Source: Promethearchaeota archaeon
Lineage (GTDB): Archaea; Asgardarchaeota; Thorarchaeia; Thorarchaeales; Thorarchaeaceae
Length of the DNA stretch: 32,000 bases
Direction: 5' to 3'
Assembly: GCA_027031765.1 (NCBI GenBank)
Contig: JALVPN010000144.1
Span: 41,384-73,383, forward strand
Position numbers and translations under genes: made by a program. The notes under the pieces are model-generated. The model was not told the DNA's origin. It saw nothing but the letters and a program-made list of their open reading frames with translations, and did not search any database. Shown here piece by piece: positions 291 through 21,585 of the stretch (position 1 is its first letter; each line of letters opens with the position of its first letter).

Positions 291-293
291 TGG

Positions 294-899: not shown

Positions 900-905
900 C
901 ACACG

Positions 906-912
906 TTTATAT
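906..912 (+). promoter_or_regulatory. Putative TATA box upstream of DRG GTPase
   Basis: TTTATAT in a short intergenic gap of a GC-rich window. Confidence 0.45.
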
Positions 913-1042
913 GTTGACAACACCAAGATGATGGCAGCTCGAGAAAGGGACTAACACTCAATGATGAGCCCCGCATTCGAGGAACATGCCAGTAGCGGGC
1001 CGCTGGCCCAGATGGGGACATGCAGACAAGGAACACAGGCGG

Positions 1043-2230: not shown

Positions 2231-2253
2231 GGTGTGACGAGGGAGTCGTAGCC

Positions 2254-3527: not shown

Positions 3528-3582
3528 TGCTCACCACCAAATCCGGCAGCTTGATGTGTTCTGTGGCAAGCCGGTCAGTGCG

Positions 3583-3609
3583 AATAAAAGGCTTGTGGCA
3601 TGGGCCACA
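3583..3609 (-). promoter_or_regulatory. Putative rpl10e promoter: TATA (CTTTTATT) with adjacent palindrome TGTGGC-N4-GCCACA
   Basis: CTTTTATT on the minus strand ~56 nt upstream of the ATG. Near-identical arrangement at 13521-13547. Confidence 0.5.
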
Positions 3610-3827
3610 GGTTGGAGCAATGGAGTATCGCCACTCGGACCGGGTAATCCCAGTGTATCGGTCACAGAGGCACTGAAAGCAGTCCATTCAACTCTTGTTA
3701 AGATAGTGTGTGGCACGGATTTGGGGCCACATCAAAGGCCCATGTCGCTGGCGGGTAGGAGTGGGGATCAGTCCTGAGGAAGACGCGGACTGACCAACAC
3801 GACTACAACACCGGACTGAGACCGCGT

Positions 3828-5648: not shown

Positions 5649-5709
5649 GTCTTATATGATGTCTGGGAGGCGTGAGTCCGAACCCAGTTACAAGTAGGAG
5701 TGACACTGC

Positions 5710-5994
5710 ATGTCGGAGAGCGAGGCCAAAAAGGGCCTAAAAGGCGTTGTGACCAGCTACCGTAGAGGAAAGCACAAACAGAACCCGAACCAAGTACTCC
5801 TTGTCTTCGATGGTGTCACGACTAGGGCACAGGCGGCAGCGCTCGCTGGACGGAGGGTGCGGTGGGTATCACCTGTAGGGCGTGAGGTGCTGGGAAAGAT
5901 CTTGGGGCCACATGGCAACAGTGGGGCAGTACGTGCCAAGTTCAGGACAAACCTCCCAGGACAGGCACTGGGGACACCGGTGTACATAGTCTAG
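5710..5994 (+). CDS. rpl35ae: 50S ribosomal protein eL33 (L35Ae)
   Basis: KGVVTSYRRGKHKQNPNQVLL...GKILGPHGNSGAVRAKFRTNLPGQALG signature. TTATAT at 5652-5657 upstream. Confidence 0.97.
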   Translation: MSESEAKKGLKGVVTSYRRGKHKQNPNQVLLVFDGVTTRAQAAALAGRRVRWVSPVGREVLGKILGPHGNSGAVRAKFRTNLPGQALGTPVYIV

Positions 5995-6020
5995 AGTAGA
6001 GGGGTCCGACGAGTAACAAC

Positions 6021-6027
6021 TTTTTAT
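6021..6027 (+). promoter_or_regulatory. Putative TATA box of the C/D box sRNA
   Basis: TTTTTAT ends 24 nt upstream of the predicted sRNA 5' end (6051), which is canonical archaeal spacing. Confidence 0.55.
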
Positions 6028-6050
6028 CCGGGTCTGCTGAGAGCTGATGT

Positions 6051-6123
6051 GGCTCCAATGATGGAGAATGGCTATCGTTAGGGCGTCAGGCCCGATGACG
6101 AGTCATAGTTAGACTGAGGGGCC
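6051..6123 (+). ncRNA. Box C/D guide sRNA; D guide complementary to LSU rRNA helix 69
   Basis: Terminal stem GGCTCC(6051-56)/GGGGCC(6118-23), C box ATGATGG (6058-64), C' ATGACGA (6095-6101), D box CTGA (6114-17). The segment GAGTCATAGTTA (6100-6111) is the reverse complement of UAACUAUGACUC. Confidence 0.8.
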
Positions 6124-6194
6124 CACCAGTGGTGACACATGTCCATGTCAAGCACACTCTGGGAGCACACTCTGAGTCTTGGGGCCAGCAATAG

Positions 6195-6743
6195 TTGAAC
6201 ACAGTAGTCTACACGTTGACATATCTGGTGGCCGGTCTGACGCTGAAGACCGGTGACGATGTACTCGACGAGCTCGACATGCCATGGCTAGCATGGACCC
6301 CGCTGGTCCTGTCAGGACTGATGTTCGGACTCATAATGACCGTTTCACAGTGGGATTTTGCACTGATGACCGCAATAGTGATAGGGGTCACACTCGCGGG
6401 CAAGGTGAACAGGGTGGAGTTCGCTGGCGGGTTCATTGCACTAGTGGCTGTGCTGGTCTTCGTCGGCCCGCCAACAGTCACCGACCTGGGGGGCTGGGTC
6501 ACCTTGGTCATTGTGCTGCTCATTGCAGCAGCTGCAGACGAGGCCGCTGGTAACTGGACCGAGGGGCGGGGTACTTCACCCCTCACATGGCTCCTTGAAC
6601 ACCGTTTCGTACTGAAAGCATGCGCATTGTCGGTCATACCAATATGGCCACAGTTCCTCCCAGCCGGTCTTGGACTCTGGGTGTTCGATGCAGGGTATGA
6701 GATGGCCGGGACACTGGTGAAACGGGCTCAGTCAAGGAGCTGA
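6195..6743 (+). CDS. Hypothetical polytopic membrane protein
   Basis: 182 aa with 5-6 hydrophobic helices and a TTG start. Contains GDDVLDE after the first helix. Family not recognised. Confidence 0.7.
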   Translation: MNTVVYTLTYLVAGLTLKTGDDVLDELDMPWLAWTPLVLSGLMFGLIMTVSQWDFALMTAIVIGVTLAGKVNRVEFAGGFIALVAVLVFVGPPTVTDLGGWVTLVIVLLIAAAADEAAGNWTEGRGTSPLTWLLEHRFVLKACALSVIPIWPQFLPAGLGLWVFDAGYEMAGTLVKRAQSRS

Positions 6744-7738
6744 TATGCCAGGCTGCAGCACACATCAAAGAACTCCGGTACAAGGCCCATCGCCACTGCG
6801 GTATCGACCCCCTCCTGGCTCACGTAGGCAATCCCGTTGACCCCGGCACGGACAGCAAACTTGTCGGTCTCGACCTTGTGTTGCCCGAGTGGCCGTGCAC
6901 AGCCCAAGAGTAGCGGGACATCGGCAAGGCCGAGACGTGCTATGACCATGAGGCGTGCAATGTCCTCAGGCGAAGGGGGGTTGACGTGCGCCATTGGAGT
7001 GTGACGGAGAGGGCTCAGTACAATCAGGACTACAGCAGCAGGATGGGTCTCGGATATGATGTGGAGGGCTTGGAGCTCGCCGTTCAGGCGACCATAGTCC
7101 AGGCCGACCAAGACATGTGGGACAACAGGGACACCAGCACGTTGCAGGTACAATAGTGACTCCCGCATCAGACGAGGGCCGTCATCCAAGTGGTACACAG
7201 AACGGGACACACTACTGCTGCCTATCACGTCGAGCATCGCTGCATCGACACCCGCCCTCGCAAGGCCCTCGGCAGTCTGGCGTGTGACCAGACCCGTATG
7301 TACGACTACCCTCAGGCCGAGTTCGTGTCTGGCCGCTGATATGGTATCGATGAAGCGTGCAAGCGGTACATGACCCGCAATGTCAGCCCCCCCACTGATT
7401 AGGACGCCCTCGCCGCCAGCCTCTGCGACCTGTCTGCAGGCCTCTAGGAGTTCCTTGGGAGTTGGCGCGGGTATCATGGCCCCTAGGAGGCGCCCTCTAC
7501 AGTGGTCACACTGGAGGGCACACGATGTACCAGTGATGCTCAGGGACACAAAGTTGTGGCGGCTCTTCTGCTGGTGTGATAGGATCTGATACGGATAGCC
7601 CGTGGGGCTGAAACAGAGGAGCCTGTGCCCATGACGCGAAGTGCGGAGAGAGAATGCTCGTTCCATCCATCGTTGGAAGTCTGTTGGAGAGGCGCCAAGG
7701 ACTAGGGGGCCCTGCTCAAGGATGTTGAAGCCGGTCAT
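6728..7738 (-). CDS. Radical SAM protein, LipS1-type (archaeal two-component lipoyl synthase subunit; often annotated biotin-synthase-like)
   Basis: SITGTSCALQCDHC (CxxxCxxC), ISGG, LLGCARP and a C-terminal CC motif, as described for Thermococcus LipS1. Confidence 0.78.
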   Translation of the reverse strand: MTGFNILEQGPLVLGASPTDFQRWMERAFSLRTSRHGHRLLCFSPTGYPYQILSHQQKSRHNFVSLSITGTSCALQCDHCRGRLLGAMIPAPTPKELLEACRQVAEAGGEGVLISGGADIAGHVPLARFIDTISAARHELGLRVVVHTGLVTRQTAEGLARAGVDAAMLDVIGSSSVSRSVYHLDDGPRLMRESLLYLQRAGVPVVPHVLVGLDYGRLNGELQALHIISETHPAAVVLIVLSPLRHTPMAHVNPPSPEDIARLMVIARLGLADVPLLLGCARPLGQHKVETDKFAVRAGVNGIAYVSQEGVDTAVAMGLVPEFFDVCCSLAYQLLD

Positions 7739-7806
7739 GGTGCGTGGGCTGCTGGTCTAAGAAACGCTATTAGGGTTATGATGTCAGTGTACGACAACTA
7801 CAAGTA

Positions 7807-9294
7807 GTGGTAGGAAAACGGGTCGGTGAACAACAACAGGAGGACGAACGCTTGTCTGGGTGTGACACTTCCGGCCTCGACGTGTTCTTCAATGCCAAGA
7901 GCGTAGCAGTCTACGGTGCATCAGCAACACCCAACAGTGTTGGTCAAGCAATCATCCAGAACTTCATCAAACCCCAGTATGAGGGCAAGGTCTTCGGTGT
8001 GAACCCGAAGTACAGGACAGTCCTGGGTGTGGACTGCTACCCGACACTGCAGGACATCCCGGACGAGGTCGACCTAGTGATAGTTGCAGTGCCGGCCAGG
8101 ATAACGCCACGGGTGTTCGAGGACATTGCAGCAAAGGGAGTGAGAGCGGCCATTGTAATATCAGGCGGGTTCTCGGAAACCGGCCCACGGGGTGCCATGC
8201 TTGAAGACGAGATTGTCAGGATTGGCAAAGAGCACGGGATCAGGATAATCGGGCCCAACTGCATAGGTGTTGTTGACACGCACACACATATTGACACGTT
8301 CTTTCTGCCGGAGTACCGCTGTGGGCGGCCCAAGGCCAGCAGTACTGCGAACATATCGTTGGTGTCACAGTCAGGTGCCTTTGCAGCAGCAATATCAGAC
8401 TGGACATCCGAACTCGGGATTGGTGTGAGCAAGATTATCAGTCTTGGCAACAAGTGCGATGTGGATGATGACGACCTCCTATGCTATCTGGGAAACGACC
8501 CGTCAACCCAGGTGATATGTTTCTATACGGAGGGCTATGACCTTGGGAAGGGACGCACCTTCTTCGAGACCGCAAGAAGGGTCACACAACAGAAGCCGGT
8601 GATTGTTGTCAAGTCAGGACGCAGTGAAAGAGCAAAGGAGGCCGCAAGCTCGCACACCGGGTCACTTGCTGGGCTGGACAGCATTGCTGACGCAGCATAT
8701 CGTCAGGCCGGGGTAATCCGGGCCACAGAGTTCGAGGAGATGTTTGTGATGGCGAAGGCACTGGCGATGCAACCACCAGCAAAAGGGGACCGGGTGCTCA
8801 TCGTCACAAACGGAGGGGGACTGGGAGTAATGACCACAGATGCGCTCGAGTCGCTGGGCCTGGCGGTGCCACACCCCTCGGGCGAGCTCAGGGCGCGACT
8901 GGAAGAACGGCTCCCCTCGTACTGCGCACTGGGAAACCCGTGCGATGTTGTGGGTGACACTGATGCTGGACGGTATGACGTAGTCTTCGAGGAGGCAATC
9001 CGCAGTGGAGAGTACGACCTCTTTGTGGTGGGAATGCTGCTACAGACACCAAGCCTCGGAATGGAGATTACGAACCACATTGCTAACTATCAGAAACAGT
9101 CTGGGCTCCCGTTCGTGGTGGTATCAATGGGTGGTAGCTTCACGAGGAAGGCCGGTGAAATCCTTGAGCTCATGGGTGTCCCCACCTATTCCACAGGCGA
9201 GAAGGGCGCGCTTGCAGCAAAGGCGCTCGTCAGATACGGTGAGATAAGGTACGGCAACGAGTTCCACAGGACTGTTACAAGCGAGAAACCATAA
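7807..9294 (+). CDS. acdA: Acetate/acyl-CoA ligase (ADP-forming) alpha subunit
   Basis: SVAVYGAS CoA-binding fold, IIGPNCIG, SQSGA, SLGNK, SHTGSLAG (phospho-His), TNGGGLG, GNPCDV. Confidence 0.93.
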   Translation: MVGKRVGEQQQEDERLSGCDTSGLDVFFNAKSVAVYGASATPNSVGQAIIQNFIKPQYEGKVFGVNPKYRTVLGVDCYPTLQDIPDEVDLVIVAVPARITPRVFEDIAAKGVRAAIVISGGFSETGPRGAMLEDEIVRIGKEHGIRIIGPNCIGVVDTHTHIDTFFLPEYRCGRPKASSTANISLVSQSGAFAAAISDWTSELGIGVSKIISLGNKCDVDDDDLLCYLGNDPSTQVICFYTEGYDLGKGRTFFETARRVTQQKPVIVVKSGRSERAKEAASSHTGSLAGLDSIADAAYRQAGVIRATEFEEMFVMAKALAMQPPAKGDRVLIVTNGGGLGVMTTDALESLGLAVPHPSGELRARLEERLPSYCALGNPCDVVGDTDAGRYDVVFEEAIRSGEYDLFVVGMLLQTPSLGMEITNHIANYQKQSGLPFVVVSMGGSFTRKAGEILELMGVPTYSTGEKGALAAKALVRYGEIRYGNEFHRTVTSEKP

Positions 9295-9338: not shown

Positions 9339-10070
9339 ATGAAGACCGTCAAGAAGATCTTCAAGACAGCCCTTGATGAAGGGCGGACATTCGTCCTGGA
9401 GGACGAGGCAAAGAGAGTAATGAGGGAGTATGGGATTCCGGTCCCACCATTCGCCCCGGCGGCGACGGAAGACGAGGCCGTAGCGAGAGCAAATGAGATT
9501 GGATACCCCGTCGTGCTCAAGATACTCTCGAAAGACATCATGCACAAGTCGGATGCCGGTGGTGTCAAAGTCAACCTGAACAGCGACGAGGAAGTGAGGA
9601 GGGCATTCCAGGAGATCATGGAAAATGCCACGCAGTATGGAAAGGAGAAAGGTATTGATGTCGACCTGAGCCGCGGGGTCATTGTCACACGTTTTGTTGA
9701 GATGGGGACAGAGACCATTGTTGGTGTGACGAAAGACCCTCAGTTTGGCCATGCGCTGATGTTTGGACTCGGCGGGATATTTGTCGAAGTGCTAAAAGAT
9801 GTCACATTCCGACTGATACCACTTACAGAAATCGATGCCCGCGAGATGGTCTACGAGATAAAGGCCAAGAAGATACTGGAGGGGATACGTGGACAGCCAC
9901 CACGCGACATTGACGCCCTCGTGGAGATAATGCTCACAGTATCAAAGATGGTCGAGGAAAACCCTGAGATTGTAGAGATGGACTGCAATCCCACCATCGT
10001 ATATGAACAGGGGAAGGGTGCGGTCGTTGTCGATGCACGCATGGTAATTGAGAGTGCCTCTAGTGACTGA
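9339..10070 (+). CDS. acdB: Acetate/acyl-CoA ligase (ADP-forming) beta subunit, ATP-grasp
   Basis: GYPVVLKI.S.DIMHKSDAGGV (phospho-His), DPQFG..LMFGLGGIFVEVLKDV, EMDCNP. Start set at ATG 9339 (alternative 9315). Confidence 0.93.
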   Translation: MKTVKKIFKTALDEGRTFVLEDEAKRVMREYGIPVPPFAPAATEDEAVARANEIGYPVVLKILSKDIMHKSDAGGVKVNLNSDEEVRRAFQEIMENATQYGKEKGIDVDLSRGVIVTRFVEMGTETIVGVTKDPQFGHALMFGLGGIFVEVLKDVTFRLIPLTEIDAREMVYEIKAKKILEGIRGQPPRDIDALVEIMLTVSKMVEENPEIVEMDCNPTIVYEQGKGAVVVDARMVIESASSD

Positions 10071-11247
10071 GCAGTGAGCCCAGCAGGCGGCTCAAGAGTA
10101 TCAGGCCTCTCCTCAAGTCTGATGGGCTGATGCGTCCGGACGCAGCGGGGCCCGTCGCGATGGCGAGCAGTAGGAGGAGCGACATGAGCCGAGTCACAAA
10201 CAGGGTGTGCTCTAGGTGGAAGTCGCGGTTGCCACTCGCATCGACTATCAGGAGTTCGAGGCGTCTCATCAGCGGCTCAAGGTAGTCTGCCAGCCCCGAG
10301 GTGTTGTGTAGTCTTTTCAGGGCCTGCGTCACAGCCTGCGGGTCTTGCAGGAAGTCCAGTGGGACTCCAACCGCCCCCAGCAGTGCGAGGCCCCTGTGGG
10401 TCACTCGCTCGTAGTCTGACGCGCCAAGCTGTTCCATGGCCGAGGCAGCCGCATGACATTGTGCGAGTATCCGGAGTGAGCCAGTGAGCACCTCCCGGAC
10501 GATGCGCGGTCGCGTCGGGACAACTGGTGAGATGTGGACTGCATGTGACCGTTCAAGATGAGCTGCCATTGAAGAGTCGAGCTGTGACTCGAAGTCTGGA
10601 GCCAGGATGACATCAGCAGCCTTGAGGAGTATGGGATGGGTGCCTACACGGCGGACGGCGACTAATGCCCTGAACTCGTCCGGGTCGACATGGAAGAGCA
10701 GGACGCGTGTGACATCATAGGCCCGTTCAAAGTCGTTCTCTGTAGTGGAGCTGCGTCCCCGGAGAAATGAGAGCAGAGAACACAGTATCGTCCAGATAGA
10801 TACCAGCGACTCGCACATACCATCACATGCTGCCCGGTCGTTGACCTCATGTTCATCAAGGAAACGGGCAAGCCGGTCGACCGCACCGCCGAGGCGGCTC
10901 ATGGTCGGCCCATCAATGGTGACCGCCGCGAGGGAGTCGAGGGACTCGCGAGGACTGCGTGTTGGCGGCCGCAGCACGAAGAACGGTTGGCGCCGGTCAA
11001 GTGACCACCACCTTGATGTCGAGGCGAAGTAGTCAAGGAGGTCTATGCTCGCGGTCAAGTCGTCCATGCCAGTGGTGTTGCGTCCGTCCAGATAGGCCAA
11101 GAGGCGTGAGAAGAGCGAGAGAAACCGTGCGACATGGACGCGGACCGGGGTGCCGGCCAGTTTTGCGTCTGTGAAGTGGCCCGAAATCGTATTGATATGG
11201 GCCAGACATCCTTCATCTAGGGAGGTCGCAATGATGCCACGGTACAC
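10060..11247 (-). CDS. Hypothetical helical protein with four ~105-aa repeats
   Basis: 395-aa Leu/Ala-rich ORF filling the gap between acdB and uppS. Recurring helix-GR/xx-x5-D-hydrophobic motif (see findings). Confidence 0.7.
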   Translation of the reverse strand: MYRGIIATSLDEGCLAHINTISGHFTDAKLAGTPVRVHVARFLSLFSRLLAYLDGRNTTGMDDLTASIDLLDYFASTSRWWSLDRRQPFFVLRPPTRSPRESLDSLAAVTIDGPTMSRLGGAVDRLARFLDEHEVNDRAACDGMCESLVSIWTILCSLLSFLRGRSSTTENDFERAYDVTRVLLFHVDPDEFRALVAVRRVGTHPILLKAADVILAPDFESQLDSSMAAHLERSHAVHISPVVPTRPRIVREVLTGSLRILAQCHAAASAMEQLGASDYERVTHRGLALLGAVGVPLDFLQDPQAVTQALKRLHNTSGLADYLEPLMRRLELLIVDASGNRDFHLEHTLFVTRLMSLLLLLAIATGPAASGRISPSDLRRGLILLSRLLGSLLSH

Positions 11248-11395: not shown

Positions 11396-12175
11396 CTACT
11401 TGCCAAAACGACGGGTCCTGTGCTCGTAGGACCGCAACGCACGCCAGATGTCAATCCGTCGGACTGCTGGCCAATAGACCTGGGCGAAGTACAGTTCGGA
11501 GTATGCAGACTGCCACAGGAGGAACCCGGAGAGGCGTTCCTCGCCGGATGTGCGGATGATCAGGTCGGGGTCGGGGATGCCACTTGTGTAGAGGTGGCGT
11601 TCAATGACCTGCTCGTCGATGTCGGAGGGAGCAAGCTCCCCAACGGCAATCTTCTCACCAATAGCCCTGACAGCATCGACCAGCTCAGTGCGTCCTGAGT
11701 AGCCAATGGCAACGTTGAGGATGTGGTCGCTGTAGGCCGCGGTCTCTGCTTCTGCCATCCGTATGGCCTCCTGCACATCGGGGGGGAGGAGGTCCACCCG
11801 ACCTATGGCATTGATACGGACGCGGTGCTTGTGTACATCAGGGTTTCCAACGACCTCTCTGAACTTCTCCTTTGCAATATGCATGATGTGAGAGACCTCT
11901 TCTCTGGAACGCCGGAAGTTCTCAACGGAGAAGGCATAGAGCGTGCAGACCTTGACGCCAGCTTCCCACAGGATACGGAGCACTTCCATGACCTTCTGAG
12001 CACCCTTCTGGTGACCGAACCATGGGGCGTCTACACCGTGCTCGCGGGCGTATCGTCTGTTGCCGTCGAGGATTATGCCCACATGCCGGGGCGCCCTTTC
12101 TTTGTTCAGTTGCCTGTGCAACCAGAACTCATAGAGCCGGTAGACCGGACCAGTGAGGTTCAATGCTCCGCGCAC
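11396..12175 (-). CDS. uppS: cis-prenyltransferase (undecaprenyl diphosphate synthase family)
   Basis: PRHVGIILDGNRR, GH..G, YAFSVENFRRS..EV, PDPDLIIRTSGEERLSGFLLWQSAYSELYF. The start may be TTG 12163 (GAGGTG SD 9 nt upstream). Confidence 0.96.
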   Translation of the reverse strand: MRGALNLTGPVYRLYEFWLHRQLNKERAPRHVGIILDGNRRYAREHGVDAPWFGHQKGAQKVMEVLRILWEAGVKVCTLYAFSVENFRRSREEVSHIMHIAKEKFREVVGNPDVHKHRVRINAIGRVDLLPPDVQEAIRMAEAETAAYSDHILNVAIGYSGRTELVDAVRAIGEKIAVGELAPSDIDEQVIERHLYTSGIPDPDLIIRTSGEERLSGFLLWQSAYSELYFAQVYWPAVRRIDIWRALRSYEHRTRRFGK

Positions 12176-12389: not shown

Positions 12390-12761
12390 CTATATCATCT
12401 TGGCAATCTTGTCGGCCGCCCGTTTCATGTCTAGGAAGATGAGGCCGAGCTTTGCATTTGCAGTTGTGGACACTGTAAGGCACGCATTCATCCCGGCCTG
12501 GACCACAAGCAGCCAGCCGTCGGCCCCCTTGATGTTCACCTGTTCAAGAGTGCCCTTGCCGAGTTCGATGGCAGCCTTCTCACCCAAGGTCAGCATGGCT
12601 GCCGTCATGGCGGCCACCTTTGCTTCGTCCACATCAGTGGGCAGGGCAGACACGATTGGCAGCCCCTCAACACTCACAATGGCACATGCCTCAATCTCAG
12701 GAATACTTCCCTGTAGCTCGTTGAGCACACCTTCAAGAGTATCTTCGCGTGTTTCACTCAA
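12390..12761 (-). CDS. Roadblock/LC7 domain protein (MglB-like)
   Basis: IEACAIVSVEGLPIVSALP...VAAMTAAMLTLGEKAAIELGKGTLEQVNIKG..G...NAKLGLIFLDMKRAA pattern. TTG start with GAGGTG SD. Confidence 0.92.
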   Translation of the reverse strand: MSETREDTLEGVLNELQGSIPEIEACAIVSVEGLPIVSALPTDVDEAKVAAMTAAMLTLGEKAAIELGKGTLEQVNIKGADGWLLVVQAGMNACLTVSTTANAKLGLIFLDMKRAADKIAKMI

Positions 12762-12772
12762 TTAGCCCCACC

Positions 12773-13345
12773 TCACTTGTACAACCGCTTGAGGATTACC
12801 TCGCGCGCTATCGCTTGGAATGCGCGCTTCACACCCACACCTTGGACAGCGATGGTCTCGTAGATTGGGACGTTCCCGCCAAGTCCCAGCAGGTCAAGCA
12901 TCTCCTCGCGGGACATCCGGTTTGGCAAGTCCCGCTTGTTGAGCATCACCACAATGGGGATTTCGCGCCCCAACGCATCCCCGAGGAACAGTTTGAGTTC
13001 CTCAAAGCTCTCGACGTTCTCCTCGCGTTGATCCGGGGACGAGTCGGCAACAAAGAGGATGCCATCCGCTCCTTGTAGGACGACCTTCCTCTGATGGCGG
13101 TGTCTCTTCTGACCGGCAACCGTGAACACATCAAAGAGCACGCGACCACCGGCACTCATCGGGACATAGTCAAAGAACAGAGTCCGGTTCGTTTCGTCCT
13201 CAATCGCAGTGAACTCGCCCTTCTGTAACCCCTCGACCTTGCCATACAGCCATCTCAGTGCAGTGGTCTTTCCACCCAGCGAGGGGCCATAGAAGACCAG
13301 TTTGAGATGGATGCGACCTTCGGTATCACGCCGTATTGTAAACAC
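12773..13345 (-). CDS. mglA: MglA-family small GTPase
   Basis: KLVFYGPSLGGKTT, ETNRTLFFDY, FTVAGQ, GADGILFVADS, NKRDL, ETIA. All match the MglA consensus (KIVYYGP..GKTT, DRTLFFD, TVPGQ). Confidence 0.9.
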   Translation of the reverse strand: MFTIRRDTEGRIHLKLVFYGPSLGGKTTALRWLYGKVEGLQKGEFTAIEDETNRTLFFDYVPMSAGGRVLFDVFTVAGQKRHRHQRKVVLQGADGILFVADSSPDQREENVESFEELKLFLGDALGREIPIVVMLNKRDLPNRMSREEMLDLLGLGGNVPIYETIAVQGVGVKRAFQAIAREVILKRLYK

Positions 13346-13520
13346 CTCACTGTTCCACTGCGTTGTTAGTCACCGGGACAGGGCCCGGAGAGATCATCGA
13401 GAGATGCGGACTCCATGCCACTAAGGACGCGCGACTGATACGGGCCTCGCGGCCCGGCAGGATGGTCAGGACCCAGTGTGATGGCCAGAGTCCGGGGTTG
13501 AGTGTTCTAGATTTCAGTCC

Positions 13521-13547
13521 AATAAAAGCCTTTGTGGCACAGGCCAC
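13521..13547 (-). promoter_or_regulatory. Putative mglA promoter: TATA (CTTTTATT) with adjacent palindrome GTGGC-N4-GCCAC
   Basis: Same TATA and palindrome as upstream of rpl10e; ~175 nt upstream of the mglA start. Confidence 0.45.
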
Positions 13548-13750
13548 TGTTGGTGTGTCGAACCAAGGACAGCTTGGGACAGACAGGGCCATTGTAAGTG
13601 GCAGGTGGAAGTTGACAGATGACTCGTTGGACATTGTTCCGGCCACACTATCGCATGCTCTCATCCGCCAGCAGTGGGCACTATGACCATATTGGGTAGC
13701 TGTGACCCGTACGGTCGGGACGATACCAGCGCCCCTACTGGAATAGAGGC

Positions 13751-14221
13751 TCACACGCGCTCCAACTTTGCCAGAGCTGACCGCAGGTCTTCCTCGTCGA
13801 TGTCCTTGTCCTTGCCAGGGGCCTCAACACCCTCGACCGAGAGGAACTCGTCCAGCTCGCGGGCAAGCTGTGCGCCCTGCTTCTTCATTACAAGACGGAT
13901 GAGCCCAATGTTGACCTCGGCTTCCGACACAACGCACAGCACACCTTTCCCGCAGGCGGAGGCGAAAATCTTGCCCTGAGAGAACTCTGAGGTGACAATC
14001 TCAAGCTCACCGATCTGTAGGTTCTTGCCCTGTTCCTCACTGGCACAGAAGACGGCACTGGCAATCGCACCGATAGAGTCAACATCAACGGGGTAGTAGC
14101 TCAACTTTGACACGTTGGCAATTGTGAGTCCCGTCTTGTCAACCAGGATTACTTTCTTGATACCTTTGTCTTGCTTGATTATCTCGGTAAGGATCTTGTC
14201 GAAAGCCTTTGGATCAGTCAT
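13751..14221 (-). CDS. mglB: Roadblock/LC7 protein, MglB-like, with acidic/helical C-terminal extension
   Basis: KVILVDKTGLTIA...IGAIASAVFCASEEQG..L..GELE....EFSQGKIF...EVNIGLIRLVMKK pattern. Upstream of mglA. Tail DKDIDEEDLRSALAKLERV. Confidence 0.85.
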   Translation of the reverse strand: MTDPKAFDKILTEIIKQDKGIKKVILVDKTGLTIANVSKLSYYPVDVDSIGAIASAVFCASEEQGKNLQIGELEIVTSEFSQGKIFASACGKGVLCVVSEAEVNIGLIRLVMKKQGAQLARELDEFLSVEGVEAPGKDKDIDEEDLRSALAKLERV

Positions 14222-14235
14222 GATGTCAACCCCAC

Positions 14236-14532
14236 TTATGCATTCTTCAGAACCACTAGTATCAGGCCTTCTCGTGGTTCCGGTGCGATGTTTATCTGTC
14301 CTTTGGAAGTGTCAAGAGTGAGGAACGAGAGGCTCCCCTCTTTCAACTCCCTCACGGCGTCAAGGGCCTTGCCGACCAGAGAAGTGATTATTGCAGCAAC
14401 ACTCTCGGTGGTCTCTGGGTCGAGGTCGCTACTCAAGGGTAGGCCTTCCATCGTGGTGACCACTACTCCACGGACGCCCTCTTGAGCCTTAATCTTGTTG
14501 AGGATTCCCTCAAGTTTCTCTTGGCTAATCAA
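14236..14532 (-). CDS. Small roadblock/LC7 domain protein
   Basis: [20 protein letters not shown]...[13 protein letters not shown]...[15 protein letters not shown]. Start reassigned to TTG 14532 (GGTGAT SD 7 nt upstream); the longer ORF-track start overlaps the upstream gene. Confidence 0.88.
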
Positions 14533-14692
14533 CGATGGTATCACCGCTGCTGTCAATGGTGCTTCCAACGCATTTTTCGTACTCTTTCTGGGTATTTGAG
14601 AGTTGTGATTATTATCTCTGCGTATCGGCTGCACGCTGCACGTAGTAGCAGCCTGTACACTGCAAAGGGAGTGGCCAGAAATAAAGCTGCTC

Positions 14693-16318
14693 CTACTCGT
14701 CGTCATCGTCCTCCTCGTCGTCCTCACGCACCAGTTCATCAAGTCGTGCACGCATCTTTGAGATGTTCATGGACGCCATCATATCCCTGGCCATTGCGGC
14801 CCGGAATGGTGGGGCTGCTGCAGCCTCTGCCTGCACCTGAATCTGCTCCTCAAGGTCTTCTTCCTGTTCGGCCATTATGCGGTCGGCCGTTTCAAAGGAC
14901 TCACGTGCATGAGAGGGCGCAGCAGCAGCCATGGCACGCAGGACATGTCGCAATTCCCGGATTTTTGATGCTCCGGCCTCTTGGTGCCCATGAAATGCCT
15001 CCTCCCCCGCCTTCTGTACAGCAAAGGCTGCTGAGAGGGTCGGGTCAAACGATGCGAGGAGTTCATCCTCCCGGCGTGCAACTTTCAGTTCCGTGGTGAC
15101 GGCCCGGAGATGGCGCGCACCCTCATCGTCGGTGTATTCGACCTGTATCTGGATTGGGACTGTTTCGGACTCGATTTCGTGTGTTGGTTCCATGGAGAGA
15201 TAGATCTCATGGGTATCGGCTACAGCACCGATACGGCTGCTCCGTGCCCCCGCCAGTGAGCGGGCCGCCTCAGGGGAAAGGCCGGACACTTCGCCAACAC
15301 GCACCCCGGGTGGTGTGATGACCCGGACTTCGACATCGCGACCGAGAATGCTGGCCCCAGACAGACGGGCCATGTACTTGTCCAGTTCCGAGGGCGTGAC
15401 GTAGTACATCTGTCCGCCCGTTATCTCAGGAATGAGTCCGATGGTCTGTAGTTCCATTCCTGACCCTGATGCGATGCCCACCACATCGAAGATGACACCC
15501 ACATCATTGAACATCCGGGCAATCTGCTCATAGAACTCCTTGGCCGGGGTGACCTGATAGCCCTCCAATGCGCCAACGCCCTCATTTGCAAGCCCATCGG
15601 TAAGGAGCACCACACGGCCCACTCCGCGGTGTTTCGCAATGACATATGCTGCGGCGACAGCGGGTCCAAGGGCTGTGCCACCCTTGTCACGCAGTTGCCG
15701 GACATGGTGCTTCAGGCGGTCTGCATTGGTACCCACAGGGATCATCTTCACACGGTCCAGGAGCCTGCGGGTGGCGTCCATGACCCGTTCCAAGCTGGCA
15801 TAACTGCCAGGGGGTATCTGGATGGGCGCCCCGGTCTCAAGGTCACGTATCACCACGCTGCTCTCGAACTCAATAAGACCGAACATGGTCTCGGGAGAGT
15901 TTGCGGCAAGGCTGTCAATGGAGTTACTTAGACTGCGCTTCACAGCTGCAAGATTGGCGCCGGCCATGGAACCAGAAACATCAATCACTGCAAGGAATGC
16001 CTTTCCAGCTGCGGGCGCAGGCTGTGTCTCAGTGGTAGTGGTCTCCTTGGGTGGCGGACTGACAACAAAGTCGGTATCGCTACCAGCCGAAACTATCTCG
16101 CCCTCTATCACGTTCAGCGTGCCACAGAAGGAGCACACAAAGTGACGCCCTATGCGTGAGTCTTCCTTTATCTGGTCTGCACTGAGCAGGACTGCGCCAC
16201 ATTTGTGACATGCAATCGGGCGGCCTACAATGCGGCGTGGCTCCCGGGCCAGTTCTGAGAAGTCGATACGGACTACGTAGGGGAGGCCACGGGTCACATC
16301 CCGGGATGCTGGAAACAT
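14693..16318 (-). CDS. Sec23/Sec24-like protein: Zn finger + vWA (trunk) + beta-sandwich + helical region
   Basis: [12 protein letters not shown]...[12 protein letters not shown] (Sec23/24-type Zn finger), IDVSGSM...GGTALG...LLTDG (vWA MIDAS), [25 protein letters not shown] (resembles the Sec23/24 beta-barrel end), acidic C-tail. Start set at ATG 16318 (ORF track 16357). Confidence 0.82.
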
Positions 16319-16705
16319 ATCCGAGCTTGTCCGTAGCATGGGCATATACAGAACCACCGTCAGTCCAATTGTCTGGAGAGCCTATACATGAACCGTATTA
16401 AGTGAATCGTAGATGGGGGAGGGTCAAAAGGCGAGTGGGTATGGGCTCGAAAGCCACAACGTCCACAGCTGGGGGAACACGGAAAGGGTGGGGACAGCGA
16501 GGTGTACACCGTGCATACCGGTCGGGCTCCATAACTAGCTGCGAACACTAGCCCACAGGAAACCAGACAAGGGGCAGGGACTGGACGAGTGAACTGTGGA
16601 ACAGCGTGCGGCACAGCACCAACGGCATGGAGGCCGCCCACCAACACAAGATATAAGGAGTGAGTAATCCAAACCTAGTAACGAATAGACCGCTACGGGG
16701 ACTGA

Positions 16706-17077
16706 TTGACAGTGGTTGACAAGGCCAAGATTGAGAAGATAGTTGCTGATACAATGGCAGCTAATACCGACCTCGAGGGAATTGTGGTCTGTGAGCCGAC
16801 CGGCAAAGTGATCTTTGGGCACATGATTGCCGGGGGCATAAGACATGTGGACGTCGCGGGTCTTGCAGTCAAGATAGCAGCTGACGCGTCCCAGCTTGTG
16901 AAGACTCTTGAGAAGGGCGGACTGAGAGAGGTCACAATTGCATCGGAGCTAGGAGTCGTTGTGATTCTTGGTGACGTGAAGATGGTCGTGGCAGGAATAG
17001 CCGGGAAGAGCGCGCACGAGTCCATAGGGCTACTACGGATGGCCCTCAAGCGTGCGTTGCTAGAGATGGTGGAGTAG
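16706..17077 (+). CDS. Roadblock/LC7 domain protein
   Basis: LEGIVVCEPTGKVI...VAGLA..IAADA......L.KGGLREVTIASELG.VV...SIGLLRMALKRA pattern. TTG start. Confidence 0.82.
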   Translation: MTVVDKAKIEKIVADTMAANTDLEGIVVCEPTGKVIFGHMIAGGIRHVDVAGLAVKIAADASQLVKTLEKGGLREVTIASELGVVVILGDVKMVVAGIAGKSAHESIGLLRMALKRALLEMVE

Positions 17078-17284: not shown

Positions 17285-20200
17285 TTGGTCTACATTGAGA
17301 AGATTGTGGTCAAAGGGTTCAAGTCGTTTGGTCGCGAAACGGTGACCATCAGGCTGAGCCCGGGATTCACATGTGTTGTTGGACCTAACGGCTCCGGCAA
17401 GTCCAATGTGATTGATGCGATACTGTTCGTCTTGGGGCAACTCAGTGCAAAGACGCTGCGTGCTACTGTGTTCTCGGACCTGCTCTATAAGCCACCAAAA
17501 CCAGGTATGCCACCGGGCGCAAGGAAGGCGGTCGTGGAACTGCACTTCAACAACCAGGACCGCAAGCTGAAGGTCGATGCAGACAAGGTGGTCATTGCAA
17601 GAGAACTGGACGAGTCGGGCAAGTCGGTCTGCAGGGTTAACGGCAAGGTCGTTACAAGGGCGACTGTACTGGATGTGCTAGGGAGCATAGGTGTCGACCC
17701 AAACGGGTACAACCTTGTGCTGCAGGGTGAGATAGCACAGATGGTGAAGGTGAGCCCGAACGACCGTCGCAAGTTGATTGAAGAGATTGCTGGAATCTCG
17801 GCGTACGACGAACAGAAAGAACGTGCCCTGAAGAAGCTAGCGGAAAGCGAGGCTAATCTTGGCAAGGTGGAGGCACAGCTGCAAGAACGGCGCCGACAGC
17901 TCGAACGACTCGAGCTGGAGAGAGAGGATGCGCTCAAATATACCGAGATCCAGTCGAGGATGCAACAGATACGGGTTGACAGGCTGGCGTGGACCATCCT
18001 CAAGGCGCAGAGTAGGACTAGAACCATAAAGGAGAACCTCGTTGAGCGTGCGGAGAGGGCCAGACAGCTGGAGGAGAGGGTCAGGGAAGTCGAGAAGGCC
18101 ATAGACACCGCCGAAACAGAAATTGAAGAGATTGACCGGGCCATTGACCAGATCACAGGCAGCGAGTCTGCACGGGTGTCAGAACAACTGGGAAAGGCCT
18201 CAGCAGCACTCGAACATGTGAGAAGAGAGTTTGAGGGGCGAGCCAAGGAGCTTGAGGGCAAGAGGGCACTGCTCACCGTGACGCAGGAACAGATTGCCGG
18301 CTTGGGTCGCGAGATTGAGGAGGCCACCCGACAGATTGAGGAGAAGGAGAACAGGCTCAAAGAGGTGGTCGCCGAGGTCGAGGGCTGTGAGGACAGTATC
18401 CGACGACTTGAGACAGTTTCCGAACGGGAGCAAGCCCAGTTCCTCGAAACGACACAGAAGCTCCAAGAGCTCAACAGACTGGTCGCTGCGCTTGACGAAC
18501 AAATCTCAGAAGCCCGTTCCCAAGTCAGGTCGAACAAGAGGGACATAAGGCTCCTGTACGAGGACATAGAGGACGCCAAGGGCGCCCTTGAGAGGGCCGA
18601 GGCCGAGCGTGAGGAACTGGAGAGGACAGTTCCGGAGAAGCGCCAGGAGTTGGAAGTCCTTGAGCGTGAGGAGGAGGACACCCAGGACCAGCTGGTACGT
18701 GTCCGTGAGCAGCTGTCCAGAGTCGGTGCCGAGGTGGCCGAAACAAGCAAGATTGTCAGCGAGACCCGGGAGGAGCTCGTCAAGATACGTGCCCGGCAGG
18801 ATGCACTTAGAGAGGCTGAAGAGGCATTTCTGAGGAGGAAACGAGCTGTTGCACGAGTGCTACAGCTGAGGGACACGGGAGAAGTGGACGGGATCTATGG
18901 CACCGTTGCGGAGCTGGGCAAGATCAATCCAGACTACGCGGTCGCAATGGAGGTGGCCGGTGGAAACAGGCTCTCTTACATCGTCGTGGAAGACGAAGAT
19001 GTCGCGACCAAGTGCATAAGAGTCCTGAAACAGGAGCGTGTTGGTCGTGCGTCATTCATCCCGCTGAACAAGATCAGGACACGCGCGCCCGGAAAGCTGC
19101 CCGATGATGACGGTGTGATTGGTTTTGCACTAGACCTCGTCAGTTTCGACAAGCGACTACAGCCCGCATTCGAGTTCGTCTTCTCGGACACCATTGTTAC
19201 CGAGGACTTTGAGGCGGCCAAGCGCATCGGCTTCAGGGGCAACCGTGCGGTCTCGCTGGATGGGGACCTTGTTGAGCGTTCGGGACTGGTCACGGGAGGA
19301 CACTACCAGAGGCAGACGGCCGGGCTCACACTGCAGATTGAAGACACAACACCGGAGGTCATCACCCGCCTCGAAGGCCTTGAAAACATACTGGCTGGGC
19401 TGCTGCAGAAACAGGAGGAACTAGAAGCAACAAGACAACGTCTTGAGAAGCAGGCCCAAGACCTGTCGAAGAAGCTGTATGTTGGACGGATGGAACTCGA
19501 ACGGCTCGAGGAACGGCTTGGAGACCGTCAGACCCGTGTGTCTATGTTGACCGAGAGAATAGAGGAGAACGGACAACGTGTTGCAGCCCTAGAGAGAGAG
19601 ACCCACGAACTGGAAGAGGAGATGGACAGGCTAATAGCGGAGAAGGAACGTATTCAGGAGGAACGGGACGCCTGCAACGAGATACTTGCACGGTCGGATG
19701 TTGCAAGGGTCAACCAAGAGATACGCGATTTGAAAGTGGTGCTTGAACGCAAGGCCCGTGAGAGAGATGAGATAAAGGACGCGTTGTCTAGGCTGAGAAC
19801 CAGCGTTGAGGAGAGGTTTAGACCGCGTGTCCACGAACTCCAGAGAAGACTTGATGCCACGGAGAGAGAGATACCAACACTGGAGGCCCAAGTACGTGAG
19901 TTGGAGCAGGAACTTAAGGAAAAAGAGGCCCAGTACGAAACGCTCAGAAGCGAACATGCCCGGATAGAGGCTTCTGTGAAGGACAGACGTATCCGTCAGG
20001 CCGAGTTGAAGAGAAAACTTGCCGACCTGCGACGCGCGCTCGATGAAACAAAGGACGAGCGGACCCAGAACGACAAGGCGATATACCGGCTGCAGACCGA
20101 ACAGGCACGTCTGGAGAACGAGCTGGTCGGAGTGGAGGCCGAACTGGCCAACCTAGCCGATGTCAGAGAGGAACTGGAGAAGAGGCGGTCGATGCGGGAG

Positions 20201-20875
20201 GTGACATACAGGGAGCTCGACGAGATGACGGAGAAGATCAGGGAACTTGAGCGGGAACTCGATGAGATGGGGCCGGTCAACATGAAGTCGCTGACAGACT
20301 ATGAGGCTGAACGTGAGAGGTACGAGGAGATTGTTGACAGGAAGGTCAAACTGGAGGAGGAACACAAGGAAATCCTGCGGTTCATGGAGGAGCTGGAGGC
20401 TGAGAAGACGCGGAAGTTCCTCAGGGTGTATAATGAGATAGCGGACAACTTCTCAAGGGTGTTTGCCAAGCTCTCACCGGGTGGAGAAGCACATCTGATG
20501 CTTGAGAACCCTGAGCACCCGCTCATGGGGGGGATAATTGTAAAGTCAAAGCCGCAGGGCAAGGATGTCGTCACGCTGGATGCCATGAGCGGTGGGGAGA
20601 AGACGCTCACAGGGCTGGCCCTGATATTTGCAGTGCAGATGTACAGCCCCGCAAGCTTCTACGTCTTTGATGAGATTGATGCAGCCCTTGATGATGTAAA
20701 CGCACACAATGTTGCGACTCTCATCTCAGAGATGTCGAAGTCATCGCAGTTCATTGTGGTATCCCTGAGGGAGGCCACCGTTAGCAAGGCAGACCTGTTA
20801 ATCGGAGTTTCGAACCAAGACGGTATCTCACGGATCGTTTCGGTCGACCTGGAGGGGGTGACGAGCACTGCATGA
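17285..20875 (+). CDS. smc: Chromosome segregation protein SMC
   Basis: GFKSF, Walker A GPNGSGKSN, long coiled coils, hinge GX6GX3GG (GDLVERSGLVTGG), signature MSGGEK, Walker B/D-loop FDEIDAALD. Confidence 0.98.
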   Translation: MVYIEKIVVKGFKSFGRETVTIRLSPGFTCVVGPNGSGKSNVIDAILFVLGQLSAKTLRATVFSDLLYKPPKPGMPPGARKAVVELHFNNQDRKLKVDADKVVIARELDESGKSVCRVNGKVVTRATVLDVLGSIGVDPNGYNLVLQGEIAQMVKVSPNDRRKLIEEIAGISAYDEQKERALKKLAESEANLGKVEAQLQERRRQLERLELEREDALKYTEIQSRMQQIRVDRLAWTILKAQSRTRTIKENLVERAERARQLEERVREVEKAIDTAETEIEEIDRAIDQITGSESARVSEQLGKASAALEHVRREFEGRAKELEGKRALLTVTQEQIAGLGREIEEATRQIEEKENRLKEVVAEVEGCEDSIRRLETVSEREQAQFLETTQKLQELNRLVAALDEQISEARSQVRSNKRDIRLLYEDIEDAKGALERAEAEREELERTVPEKRQELEVLEREEEDTQDQLVRVREQLSRVGAEVAETSKIVSETREELVKIRARQDALREAEEAFLRRKRAVARVLQLRDTGEVDGIYGTVAELGKINPDYAVAMEVAGGNRLSYIVVEDEDVATKCIRVLKQERVGRASFIPLNKIRTRAPGKLPDDDGVIGFALDLVSFDKRLQPAFEFVFSDTIVTEDFEAAKRIGFRGNRAVSLDGDLVERSGLVTGGHYQRQTAGLTLQIEDTTPEVITRLEGLENILAGLLQKQEELEATRQRLEKQAQDLSKKLYVGRMELERLEERLGDRQTRVSMLTERIEENGQRVAALERETHELEEEMDRLIAEKERIQEERDACNEILARSDVARVNQEIRDLKVVLERKARERDEIKDALSRLRTSVEERFRPRVHELQRRLDATEREIPTLEAQVRELEQELKEKEAQYETLRSEHARIEASVKDRRIRQAELKRKLADLRRALDETKDERTQNDKAIYRLQTEQARLENELVGVEAELANLADVREELEKRRSMREVTYRELDEMTEKIRELERELDEMGPVNMKSLTDYEAERERYEEIVDRKVKLEEEHKEILRFMEELEAEKTRKFLRVYNEIADNFSRVFAKLSPGGEAHLMLENPEHPLMGGIIVKSKPQGKDVVTLDAMSGGEKTLTGLALIFAVQMYSPASFYVFDEIDAALDDVNAHNVATLISEMSKSSQFIVVSLREATVSKADLLIGVSNQDGISRIVSVDLEGVTSTA

Positions 20876-21585
20876 GTGATGACAACACCCCCTTCTGGGC
20901 CACGCCCCCGTATATACTGTTGACCGACGTGCTCCAACTTGACAAGGTCGACCCCTGGAACGTCGATGTCGGAAAGCTTGTGAGGGAGTTCCTTGAGGAG
21001 ATGAAACGACTTGGTGACATCGATTTCAGGGTCTCTGGCAGTGCGTTGTACTCTGCATCAGTCATATTCATGCGCAAGACACGGGATCTCGTGAAGATGG
21101 GGGTGCTACCACCGGAGGAGGACGAGGAGGAGGAGCTCGAAATCCCACTGATTAGACCCCCGTTCAGACTCACGAACCGGCGTGTGACCATTGAGGAACT
21201 GCTCGTCGCGATGGACAGAGTCCTCTCCCGAGGCATCAGAGGACGGCCGTCACCTAGCAGACGGAAGAGGGGCTCACAGGTGGCACCCCCGACCTTGAAG
21301 ATGGAGGTAAGCGAAACAAATGTGGAGGAAACAATAGCAGAAGTGTATGCAGACCTCCGGCAGATGATGGGAGTTGGCAGTACCTGTCGATTTGAAGACC
21401 TGCTCGTCAACAACACCAGACGTGAGATTGTACGTGTGTTCTTCTCCCTGCTGTACTTGTATGCAAGGGGGTACATTGACCTGTGGATGGACGAGGAGCA
21501 GACAATCTGGGTCAGGCTTCTCGCACCGCCAGTCAGCGGACACGAACAGCTCGCACAGGTCGAACAACAACACGGGCCCAGGTGA
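20872..21585 (+). CDS. scpA: Kleisin, segregation and condensation protein A
   Basis: DPWNVDV..L...F, SGSALYSAS..F.RK, acidic linker, RLTNRRVTIEELL, VRVFFSLLYL winged helix. ATGA overlap with smc. Confidence 0.93.
   Translation: MSDDNTPFWATPPYILLTDVLQLDKVDPWNVDVGKLVREFLEEMKRLGDIDFRVSGSALYSASVIFMRKTRDLVKMGVLPPEEDEEEELEIPLIRPPFRLTNRRVTIEELLVAMDRVLSRGIRGRPSPSRRKRGSQVAPPTLKMEVSETNVEETIAEVYADLRQMMGVGSTCRFEDLLVNNTRREIVRVFFSLLYLYARGYIDLWMDEEQTIWVRLLAPPVSGHEQLAQVEQQHGPR

Follow-up and report, generated by a model that had tools for sequence, protein, structure and literature searches.

The window analysed here is a stretch of 32,000 nucleotides (nt) on contig JALVPN010000144.1 (positions 41,384 to 73,383; assembly GCA_027031765.1) of a Thorarchaeota (Asgard) metagenome-assembled genome (MAG; 95% complete, 229 contigs) whose probable source is a hydrothermal-vent metagenome, and the subject is a cluster of six genes encoding a small GTPase of the MglA type, four roadblock proteins (RB1 to RB4) and a Sec23/24-like protein. 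Five of these genes occupy positions 12390-16345 of the minus strand, where the order of transcription is Sec23/24-like, RB3, RB2, a 405-nt spacer, MglA and RB1; RB4 is on the plus strand, divergent from the Sec23/24-like gene. This inventory, with three minus-strand roadblocks and a divergent fourth, had been given in an original prediction made from the DNA letters, and all six genes are present where it had placed them.

The GTPase gene (12773-13345, minus strand) encodes a small Ras-like protein of 190 amino acids (aa), whose best matches in a phmmer search of the PDB are the MglA proteins of M. xanthus and T. thermophilus (6hjh, 6h17, 5ymx, 3t12; best E value 2.2e-39, over residues 11-185), the next-best solved relative being Arf (1.4e-11). 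Across an alignment of 27 orthologues the P-loop GPSLGGKT and the NKRD motif are invariant, the G3 motif reads TVAGQ, with Thr replacing Asp (T75 invariant, Q79 nearly invariant), and switch-I carries a nearly invariant R54 and an invariant T55. These motifs align with ETDRTLFFD and TVPGQ of M. xanthus MglA, and the combined signature identifies the window protein as a genuine group-1 MglA. Orthologues were found in 26 of the 27 Asgard families sampled. The same genome also encodes a second MglA paralogue (G000:C31:30533-31075), which is 55% identical and lies inside a longer open frame of 286 aa, and equivalent long paralogues occur in other Thorarchaeota genomes.

RB1 (12390-12761, minus strand; 123 aa), located 12 nt downstream of MglA, is a roadblock/LC7 protein (Pfam Robl_LC7, E 5.6e-17; 61.7 bits against a cut-off of 23) that matches PDB entry 7f8m (E 5.8e-24), a roadblock of Thorarchaeota SMTZ1-45 of which it is not an orthologue. 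RB3 (14236 to about 14544, minus strand; about 100 aa) is a short roadblock of the DYNLRB/LC7 type (Robl_LC7 4.2e-15, 55.7 bits; LAMTOR5 2.5e-6), the best solved matches of which are 7f8f (94 aa; E 4.5e-26) and the eukaryotic dynein light chain roadblock (about 1e-13). RB4 (16706-17077, plus strand; 123 aa) has no Pfam match; as a single sequence it matches the 9jq8 roadblock at 1.5e-5 (phmmer against the PDB), and a profile of its orthologues matches 9jq8 at 1.3e-19, together with 7f8m, 9jue and the dynein roadblock. Judged by these matches, and with RB2 included, the cluster encodes four different roadblock paralogues. The start of RB3 is uncertain, being either GTG at 14544 or TTG up to 14568, with relatives aligning from residues 2-6; a longer open reading frame (ORF) reaching 14751 was rejected as over-extended, the real start lying at about 14544-14568.

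RB2 (13751-14221, minus strand; 156 aa) is an MglB/LAMTOR2-like roadblock (Robl_LC7 6.7e-10, 39.0 bits; MAPKK1_Int 1.6e-7), whose best solved sequence match is MglB (profile against the PDB, 2.5e-6). Its AlphaFold2 (AF2) model, with a mean predicted local distance difference test score (pLDDT) of 77, has the roadblock fold followed by a low-confidence linker (residues 130-141) and a helix (143-154), and Foldseek rated MK-D1 Roadblock3, LAMTOR2 and MglB about equal as structural matches, all at about 1e-9 to 1e-10. The alignment shows that the amphipathic C-terminal helix after a disordered linker is kept across Asgard families, and it recalls the C-terminal helix of MglB. Two traits of MglB are found in RB2, namely a C-terminal helix beyond a flexible linker in the AF2 model and a gene upstream of MglA; its score with the MglB equivalog model NF052242 is 22 bits against a cut-off of 200, which places RB2 as MglB-like, not as an MglB equivalog.

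The Sec23/24-like gene (14693-16345, minus strand) most likely starts at the ATG at 16345, with relatives beginning MP(M/L)..., giving the recorded protein of 550 aa. The protein consists of N-terminal strands, a CxxC...CxxC zinc finger, a von Willebrand factor A (vWA) trunk, a beta-sandwich, a helical C-terminus and an acidic tail. Pfam Sec23_trunk is matched at E 4.9e-10 (39.8 bits against a cut-off of 27) and VWA is also matched, with zf-Sec23_Sec24 (17.8 against 25 bits) and Sec23_BS (22.3 against 33.5 bits) falling below their cut-offs. A profile of 32 homologues matches yeast Sec24 (4e-17), human Sec24A (4.6e-13) and Sec23 (2.4e-5) in the PDB, and aligns to Sec24 over positions 45-476, zinc finger included. 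The AF2 model (pLDDT 82.5; predicted template modelling score, pTM, 0.80) finds Sec23 or Sec24 in all of its first 46 PDB matches in Foldseek (E about 1e-26; TM score, normalised by query, 0.62-0.71), followed by the Sulfolobus complex ArnAB (8s05, 2e-15), the bacterial vWA protein 4fx5 and the ArnB paralogue 5a8j. Sequence and model agree in identifying the protein as a true Sec23/24 homologue.

Invariant residues in the 32 sequences comprise the zinc finger cysteines C46, C49, C71 and C74 and, in the MIDAS (metal-ion-dependent adhesion site; DxSxS...T...D), the residues D122, S124, S126, T224 and D250. With its MIDAS intact, the protein would seem to bind an acidic ligand on some partner in a metal-dependent way, rather than to have a Sar1-type GTPase-activating protein (GAP) or coat function. 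In Sec23 it is the gelsolin domain that bears the Sar1 GAP arginine. No gelsolin domain was matched by Pfam in the Sec23/24-like protein, the model of which ends in long helices (435-547) and the acidic tail, so a Sec23-type arginine finger is also missing. The missing gelsolin domain accords with a previous report (PMC11914678). No second Sec23_trunk protein was found in the 95%-complete genome, and a single copy per genome means that there is no Sec23/Sec24 paralogue pair. At the C-terminus (window 14693-14800) a short conserved motif, LAQMR.SSK.LF, precedes a poly-acidic tail; this ending could serve for docking or as a ligand of the MIDAS in the same protein.

The distribution of the cluster was compared over the 27 Asgard families, of which f1 is the window's own. 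The Sec23/24-like gene and MglA occur together in 55 Thorarchaeota loci, drawn from many genera, and in these RB4 and the SMC gene are read in one direction and the Sec23/24-like gene, RB3, RB2, MglA, RB1, a cis-prenyltransferase gene of the UPP synthase family (UPPS) and orf395 in the other. The same order from SMC to UPPS was found with no Sec23/24-like gene in the cluster in two f1 genomes (G003 and G004), in a genome of the sister family (G025) and in a Hermodarchaeota-like genome (G035), and in G025 and G035 RB4 and RB3 stand directly head to head in clusters that have no insert. The head-to-head arrangement of RB4 and RB3 recurs in f2, f4, f8, f12, f15, f16 and f19. The arrangement of RB4 with RB3-RB2-MglA-RB1 is intact in f4, f8, f15, f16 and f19, the RB3-RB2-MglA-RB1 order is present with no RB4 detected in f7, f13 and f18, and a partial cluster is present in f5, f14, f22, f25 and f26. 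At least eight Asgard families besides that of the window have the MglA/four-roadblock cluster in full or almost in full, making a group-1 MglA with four roadblock paralogues one of the most conserved gene clusters over the families sampled. SMC is syntenic with it in Thorarchaeota, f2 and f12, and the RB3-RB2-MglA-RB1 order persists in many families where SMC no longer adjoins.

Sec23/24-like genes are present in seven of the 27 families (f1, f2, f9, f12, f16, f19 and f27) and adjoin the MglA cluster in one of these seven, f1. The two are 860 kb apart in a genome assembled as one contig (G060) and lie on separate contigs in G088, G063 and G135, and neither a roadblock gene nor MglA was found within 8 kb of the Sec23/24-like gene in any of 13 Hermodarchaeota-type or distant loci. 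Annotated neighbours of the gene outside f1, in four contexts, are metabolic genes with no relation to the cluster and include NAD kinase, a glycerol-1-phosphate dehydrogenase (G1PDH)-like iron-containing alcohol dehydrogenase, PHO4, PhoU, acyl-CoA dehydrogenase, OPT, threonine synthase and enoyl-CoA hydratase. The linkage of the Sec23/24-like gene to MglA, from which the original prediction had argued and which it expected to recur in relatives, breaks down outside f1, a result that it had itself named as counting against the claim. Within f1 the adjacency is uninformative, because SMC, UPPS and orf395 are equally syntenic.

Losses of the Sec23/24-like gene from the cluster are seen inside the family of the window. 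In G003 (L046:6355-7068) the last 31 codons remain between RB4 and RB3, followed by a T-run and the promoter-like motif of RB3 described below; in G012 (L051:8003-8119) the first 41 codons remain beside RB4, in a cluster that is split there by about 32 kb; and in G004 an intact Sec23/24-like gene lies on another contig amid unrelated genes, with RB4 and RB3 directly adjacent. The remnants in G003 and G012 mark two independent losses, and in all three genomes MglA (88-93% identical) and the roadblocks are intact. Constraint on the proteins also differs. Identity across Thorarchaeota genera is 88-96% for MglA, 80-94% for RB1, 79-90% for RB2 and 77-90% for RB3, and 51-68% for RB4, 45-64% for the Sec23/24-like protein and 57-63% for SMC. 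The extreme constraint on MglA and RB1 to RB3 fits a multi-partner complex, and for the Sec23/24-like protein the rate of evolution is that of the background. These losses provide natural controls, as some Thorarchaeota genomes have no Sec23/24-like gene and others have it relocated.

The spacing of the genes and the motifs between them point to several transcription units. Median spacers in relatives are 226 nt from the Sec23/24-like gene to RB3, 27 nt from RB3 to RB2, 230 nt (range 43-3919) from RB2 to MglA and 19 nt from MglA to RB1. A motif resembling a transcription factor B recognition element and TATA box (BRE/TATA-like) lies upstream of MglA, in the 405-nt RB2-MglA spacer (13346-13750, minus strand, non-coding), at 13521-13536 (conserved core at about 13520-13543), and is kept in about 35 relatives; another lies about 50 nt upstream of RB3 at 14593-14607 (minus strand) and is kept in nearly all Thorarchaeota relatives. 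Directly after the stop codon of the Sec23/24-like gene is a T-rich stretch (14672-14690), which looks like a terminator. The BRE/TATA-like pattern has three matches in the window against 0.06 expected, and since it was derived from the MglA and RB3 sites, the third copy alone is independent. This copy (CACAAGCCTTTTATT; 3583-3597, minus strand) precedes the ATG of an unrelated ORF (2985-3527, minus strand) by 56-70 nt, and fits a general strong-promoter consensus for the source genome. A search of the window with the pattern found none upstream of the Sec23/24-like gene or RB4. Taken together, the motifs indicate that the Sec23/24-like gene is most likely a transcription unit of its own, apart from RB3-RB2 and from MglA-RB1. 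A scan for sigma-70 promoters and intrinsic terminators, a method ill-suited to archaea, gave counts no different from those of shuffled sequences and was not used.

A palindromic TTGCGCAA-type box (AATGCGCAAA) is found about 40 nt upstream of the RB3 motif in nearly all Thorarchaeota relatives (for example L077, L086, L090 and L099). It is sometimes duplicated in relatives, is degenerate or absent in the window (about 14620-14650) and could be a transcription-factor operator.

The RB2-MglA spacer, which measures 40-42 nt in outgroups against 132-3916 nt in Thorarchaeota, is an insertion hotspot in the latter (L060, L071, L097, L100, L059, L092 and L110). Genes inserted there in relatives encode a TetR regulator, a methyltransferase, a ClC channel and a NosD-like protein. 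The presence of such unrelated genes indicates that neutral insertions are tolerated in the cluster, so that the Sec23/24-like gene, too, could plausibly have arrived by a neutral insertion.

The reading favoured here, to which a probability of roughly 0.6 is assigned, is that the locus combines an ancient MglA/multi-roadblock switch with a Sec23/24-like protein that is independent of it. The first part, that MglA and the four roadblocks form one system, is very probable. The original prediction had united all six genes in a single system; its claim is supported for MglA and the four roadblocks, the arrangement of which recurs in many families and three of which (RB1 to RB3) are, with MglA, conserved far above their neighbours, and is unsupported for the Sec23/24-like protein, the gene of which is adjacent in f1 only, has been deleted, disrupted or moved in three genomes and is apparently a separate transcription unit.

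The switch would be an Asgard-wide and ancient one, in which a group-1 MglA is encoded with four roadblocks, RB4 being divergent from RB3-RB2, a promoter and MglA-RB1. By analogy with the solved MglA-MglB complexes (3t12, 6h5b, 6izw), a roadblock dimer containing RB2 may dock on the switch regions of GTP-bound MglA and may stimulate hydrolysis by means of R54 and Q79 of MglA itself, and the tethered C-terminal helix of RB2 may modulate the nucleotide state. RB1, RB3 and RB4 may pair up in additional homo- or heterodimers with a scaffolding or tuning role, comparable to that of MglC for MglB or of LAMTOR2/3 and LAMTOR4/5 in Ragulator. Candidate outputs of the switch are polarity and the positioning of membrane or cytoskeleton. 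The Sec23/24-like gene would have entered the divergent RB4-RB3 intergenic region in the ancestor of the Thorarchaeota family to which the window belongs. It most likely has its own transcription, and its product is most likely not an obligatory component of the switch and probably acts separately through MIDAS-dependent binding of a partner.

Several observations weigh against this reading. The position and orientation of the Sec23/24-like gene, directly upstream of RB3, are stable in the 55 Thorarchaeota loci. The promoter and terminator calls are sequence motifs alone, and MAG assemblies could misplace genes, though the deletion remnants sit in contiguous sequence. In addition, small GTPases of other kinds were found beside Sec23/24-like genes in family f9. 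In genus g24 a Ras/Rab-type GTPase (Pfam Ras, 3.4e-45) is encoded one to two genes upstream of the Sec23/24-like gene and co-oriented with it in all eight loci examined in extended flanks (L214-L220 and L223), as in L215, where the GTPase (5699-6223) is followed by the Sec23/24-like gene (7013-8662). In G053, of genus g31, another GTPase (L188:6194-6865) lies 125 nt upstream of the Sec23/24-like gene (L188:6991-8655), and its best solved matches are 8ouk and 8oul, described as Arf GTPase, with an MglA-like Thr in G3; 8OUL is a deposited Asgard Arf structure (PMC11914678). Counted roughly, four of some 15 independent contexts have a small GTPase no more than three genes away from the Sec23/24-like gene, where about 1.15 would be expected, with a Poisson P of about 0.03 that is post hoc and ignores the clustering of GTPase genes. 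The f9 genomes have 72-93 Ras-family matches each, and the flanks of the Sec23/24-like gene differ between g24 and g31. This weak enrichment keeps a general link to small GTPases alive and does not indicate MglA. A small ORF between the g24 GTPase and the Sec23/24-like gene was considered as a roadblock or longin protein and rejected, being an AhpC/TSA fragment.

The alternative that builds on the original prediction is that in Thorarchaeota GTP-bound MglA recruits the Sec23/24-like protein as an effector or adaptor, with roadblock heteromers as GAP, guanine nucleotide exchange factor (GEF) or scaffold, and that the gene moved into the cluster to serve a GTPase-controlled proto-coat. It draws on the stable placement of the gene in Thorarchaeota, on genuine Sec23/24 homology extending over zinc finger, trunk, beta-sandwich and helical parts, on the f9 GTPases, and on the conserved C-terminal motif and acidic tail as possible docking elements. 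It is nevertheless unlikely. The six other carrier families have no linkage to MglA, three f1 genomes have lost or moved the gene with the MglA cluster intact, promoter- and terminator-like motifs part it from the roadblock and MglA genes, and the synteny of the family spans SMC and UPPS, so that the adjacency is conserved no better than its background. The protein also lacks a gelsolin domain, and the GTPases encoded beside it in f9 are from families other than MglA. Asgard Sec23-like proteins have been reported to have no Sar1-contact residues and to show no nucleotide-sensitive binding to an Asgard Arf (PMC11914678). The conserved association with a small GTPase that would be expected of a recruited, COPII-like coat does not appear in the gene orders, where one of seven carrier families has the gene beside MglA. 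A proto-coat function shared by the Sec23/24-like protein and the GTPase switch is possible, if unsupported. Prediction of a complex of the Sec23/24-like protein (32 alignment rows) with MglA (27 rows), GTP and Mg, run without controls, scored 0.00 in both runs, which speaks neither for nor against binding.

A broader version of this alternative, that Asgard Sec23/24-like proteins are small-GTPase effectors generally and that three lineages have independently placed different GTPases beside the gene (MglA with roadblocks in Thorarchaeota, a Ras/Rab-like one in g24 and an Arf-like one in g31), is improbable. Were it true, the Thorarchaeota locus would encode a GTPase-gated, MIDAS-dependent adaptor for membrane or cargo, a functional precursor to the COPII inner coat from before the gelsolin/Sar1 GAP mechanism arose.

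It could also be proposed that the protein is ArnB/ArnA-like, that is, a scaffold of vWA/MIDAS, beta-sandwich and helical parts in which phosphorylation or metal switches the binding of a partner and which acts in a regulatory pathway unrelated to small GTPases or coats. ArnAB (8s05, 2e-15), 4fx5 and 5a8j come next in structure after Sec23/24, the MIDAS DxSxS...T...D is invariant in the 32 homologues, as it is in ArnB (PMC12852372), there is no gelsolin domain, and the annotated gene contexts outside Thorarchaeota are varied and unrelated to trafficking. This proposal is doubtful in the same degree as the preceding one, as both sequence and fold are clearly nearer Sec24 and Sec23 than ArnB, the zinc finger is part of the chain itself, as it is in Sec23/24, and does not come in trans as it does from ArnA, and no FHA protein or kinase was found among the annotated neighbours.

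That the whole block is merely a frozen syntenic stretch, in which the roadblocks and MglA form no functional unit, would fit the extension of Thorarchaeota synteny to SMC, UPPS and orf395 and is very improbable, given that the RB3-RB2-MglA-RB1 order outlives SMC adjacency in many Asgard families, that spacers of 12-27 nt fit operons, that the MglA-MglB pairing is biochemically established in bacteria (PDB 3t12, 6h5b, 6izw) and that the four proteins are exceptionally conserved.

The known system closest to the favoured switch is the MglA-MglB pair of M. xanthus and T. thermophilus, with its accessory MglC. Shared with it are the group-1 signature (G3 Thr and switch-I Arg), about 40% full-length identity, a neighbouring MglB-like roadblock whose C-terminal helix is tethered and the presence of more than one roadblock paralogue. 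The window differs in encoding four distinct roadblocks together, including a short DYNLRB-like one, in its archaeal host, in having no RomR/RomX or Frz genes seen nearby and in the score of RB2, far under the MglB equivalog cut-off. Ragulator (LAMTOR1-5) with the Rag GTPases likewise combines roadblock paralogues in two size classes (long, LAMTOR2/3-like, and short, LAMTOR4/5-like) with a small GTPase, heterodimers being putative in the window; RB2 matches LAMTOR2 and LAMTOR3 in fold and Pfam (MAPKK1_Int, weakly), and RB3 has a weak LAMTOR5 match. Unlike the Rag proteins, however, the window GTPase is of the MglA type, with 190 aa and no C-terminal roadblock domain, and no LAMTOR1-like wrapping subunit was identified in the cluster. 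The conservon of Streptomyces (CvnA-D: small GTPase, roadblock, histidine kinase and a protein of unknown function) is another prokaryotic operon that pairs an MglA-family GTPase with a roadblock, but the GTPase is of another group, the roadblock is single and the sensor kinase is absent from the window locus. The Haloferax Arco oscillator (preprint) was considered as a parallel and set aside, as its GTPase belongs to a different family.

The Sec23/24-like protein shares with Sec23/Sec24 of COPII, which works with Sar1, the order and fold of zinc finger, vWA trunk, beta-sandwich and helical parts. It differs from them in having no gelsolin domain, a single copy, a complete MIDAS with an acidic tail, and no link to a GTPase in most lineages. 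ArnA-ArnB of Sulfolobus (8s05) also includes an archaeal vWA protein with MIDAS, beta-sandwich and a C-terminal helical part, and has been likened to the Sec23/24 core by its authors (PMC12852372); ArnB, however, is shorter and a weaker match, the zinc finger is on a separate protein (ZnF/FHA), and the complex is controlled by kinases and a phosphatase, none of which was seen at the window locus.

The pairing of MglA with MglB, Asgard roadblocks and Asgard Sec23-like proteins are each already known (PMC4316618, PMC10933270, PMC11914678, 10.1101/2024.02.28.582541), and Liu et al. (10.1101/2020.10.19.343400) included three roadblock/longin and two GTPase families among Asgard core genes, highlighting other operons. 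In the literature consulted, neither the conserved MglA cluster with its four roadblocks nor the Thorarchaeota-specific insertion of the Sec23/24-like gene was found described. Were the Sec23/24-like protein wired to the GTPase switch, the locus would give the first hint in prokaryotes of a coat assembled under GTPase control, a matter central to the origin of the endomembrane system. The comparative evidence speaks against inferring coat control from gene order, the adjacency being a family-specific insertion into an older cluster. The MglA/roadblock cluster itself is an expressible candidate for what preceded, in prokaryotes, the GTPase platforms scaffolded by roadblocks, of which Ragulator-Rag is one.

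Other candidate features of the locus were examined in the RB2-MglA spacer. An ORF of 135 aa (13347-13754, minus strand) was rejected as a fifth or MglB-like gene, with no Pfam or NCBIfam family and no tblastn match in any relative. No Rfam family reached its gathering threshold and no tRNA or tmRNA was found in the whole window, the spacer included, and the spacer is single-copy in the genome rather than a repeat.

The cluster is flanked on the RB4 side by SMC (17285-20875, plus strand; Pfam SMC_N 1.5e-69, SMC_hinge), after which ScpA follows (20872-21585), and on the RB1 side by UPPS (11396-12175, minus strand; Pfam Prenyltransf 4.3e-77), followed by orf395 (10060-11247, minus strand), which encodes 395 aa and has no Pfam family. 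orf395 is syntenic after UPPS in all Thorarchaeota relatives, yet merely 37-42% identical. UPPS adjoins or is near RB1 also in f4, f8, f13, f15, f19 and f25 (L164-L167, L172 and L181), an adjacency as old as the cluster.

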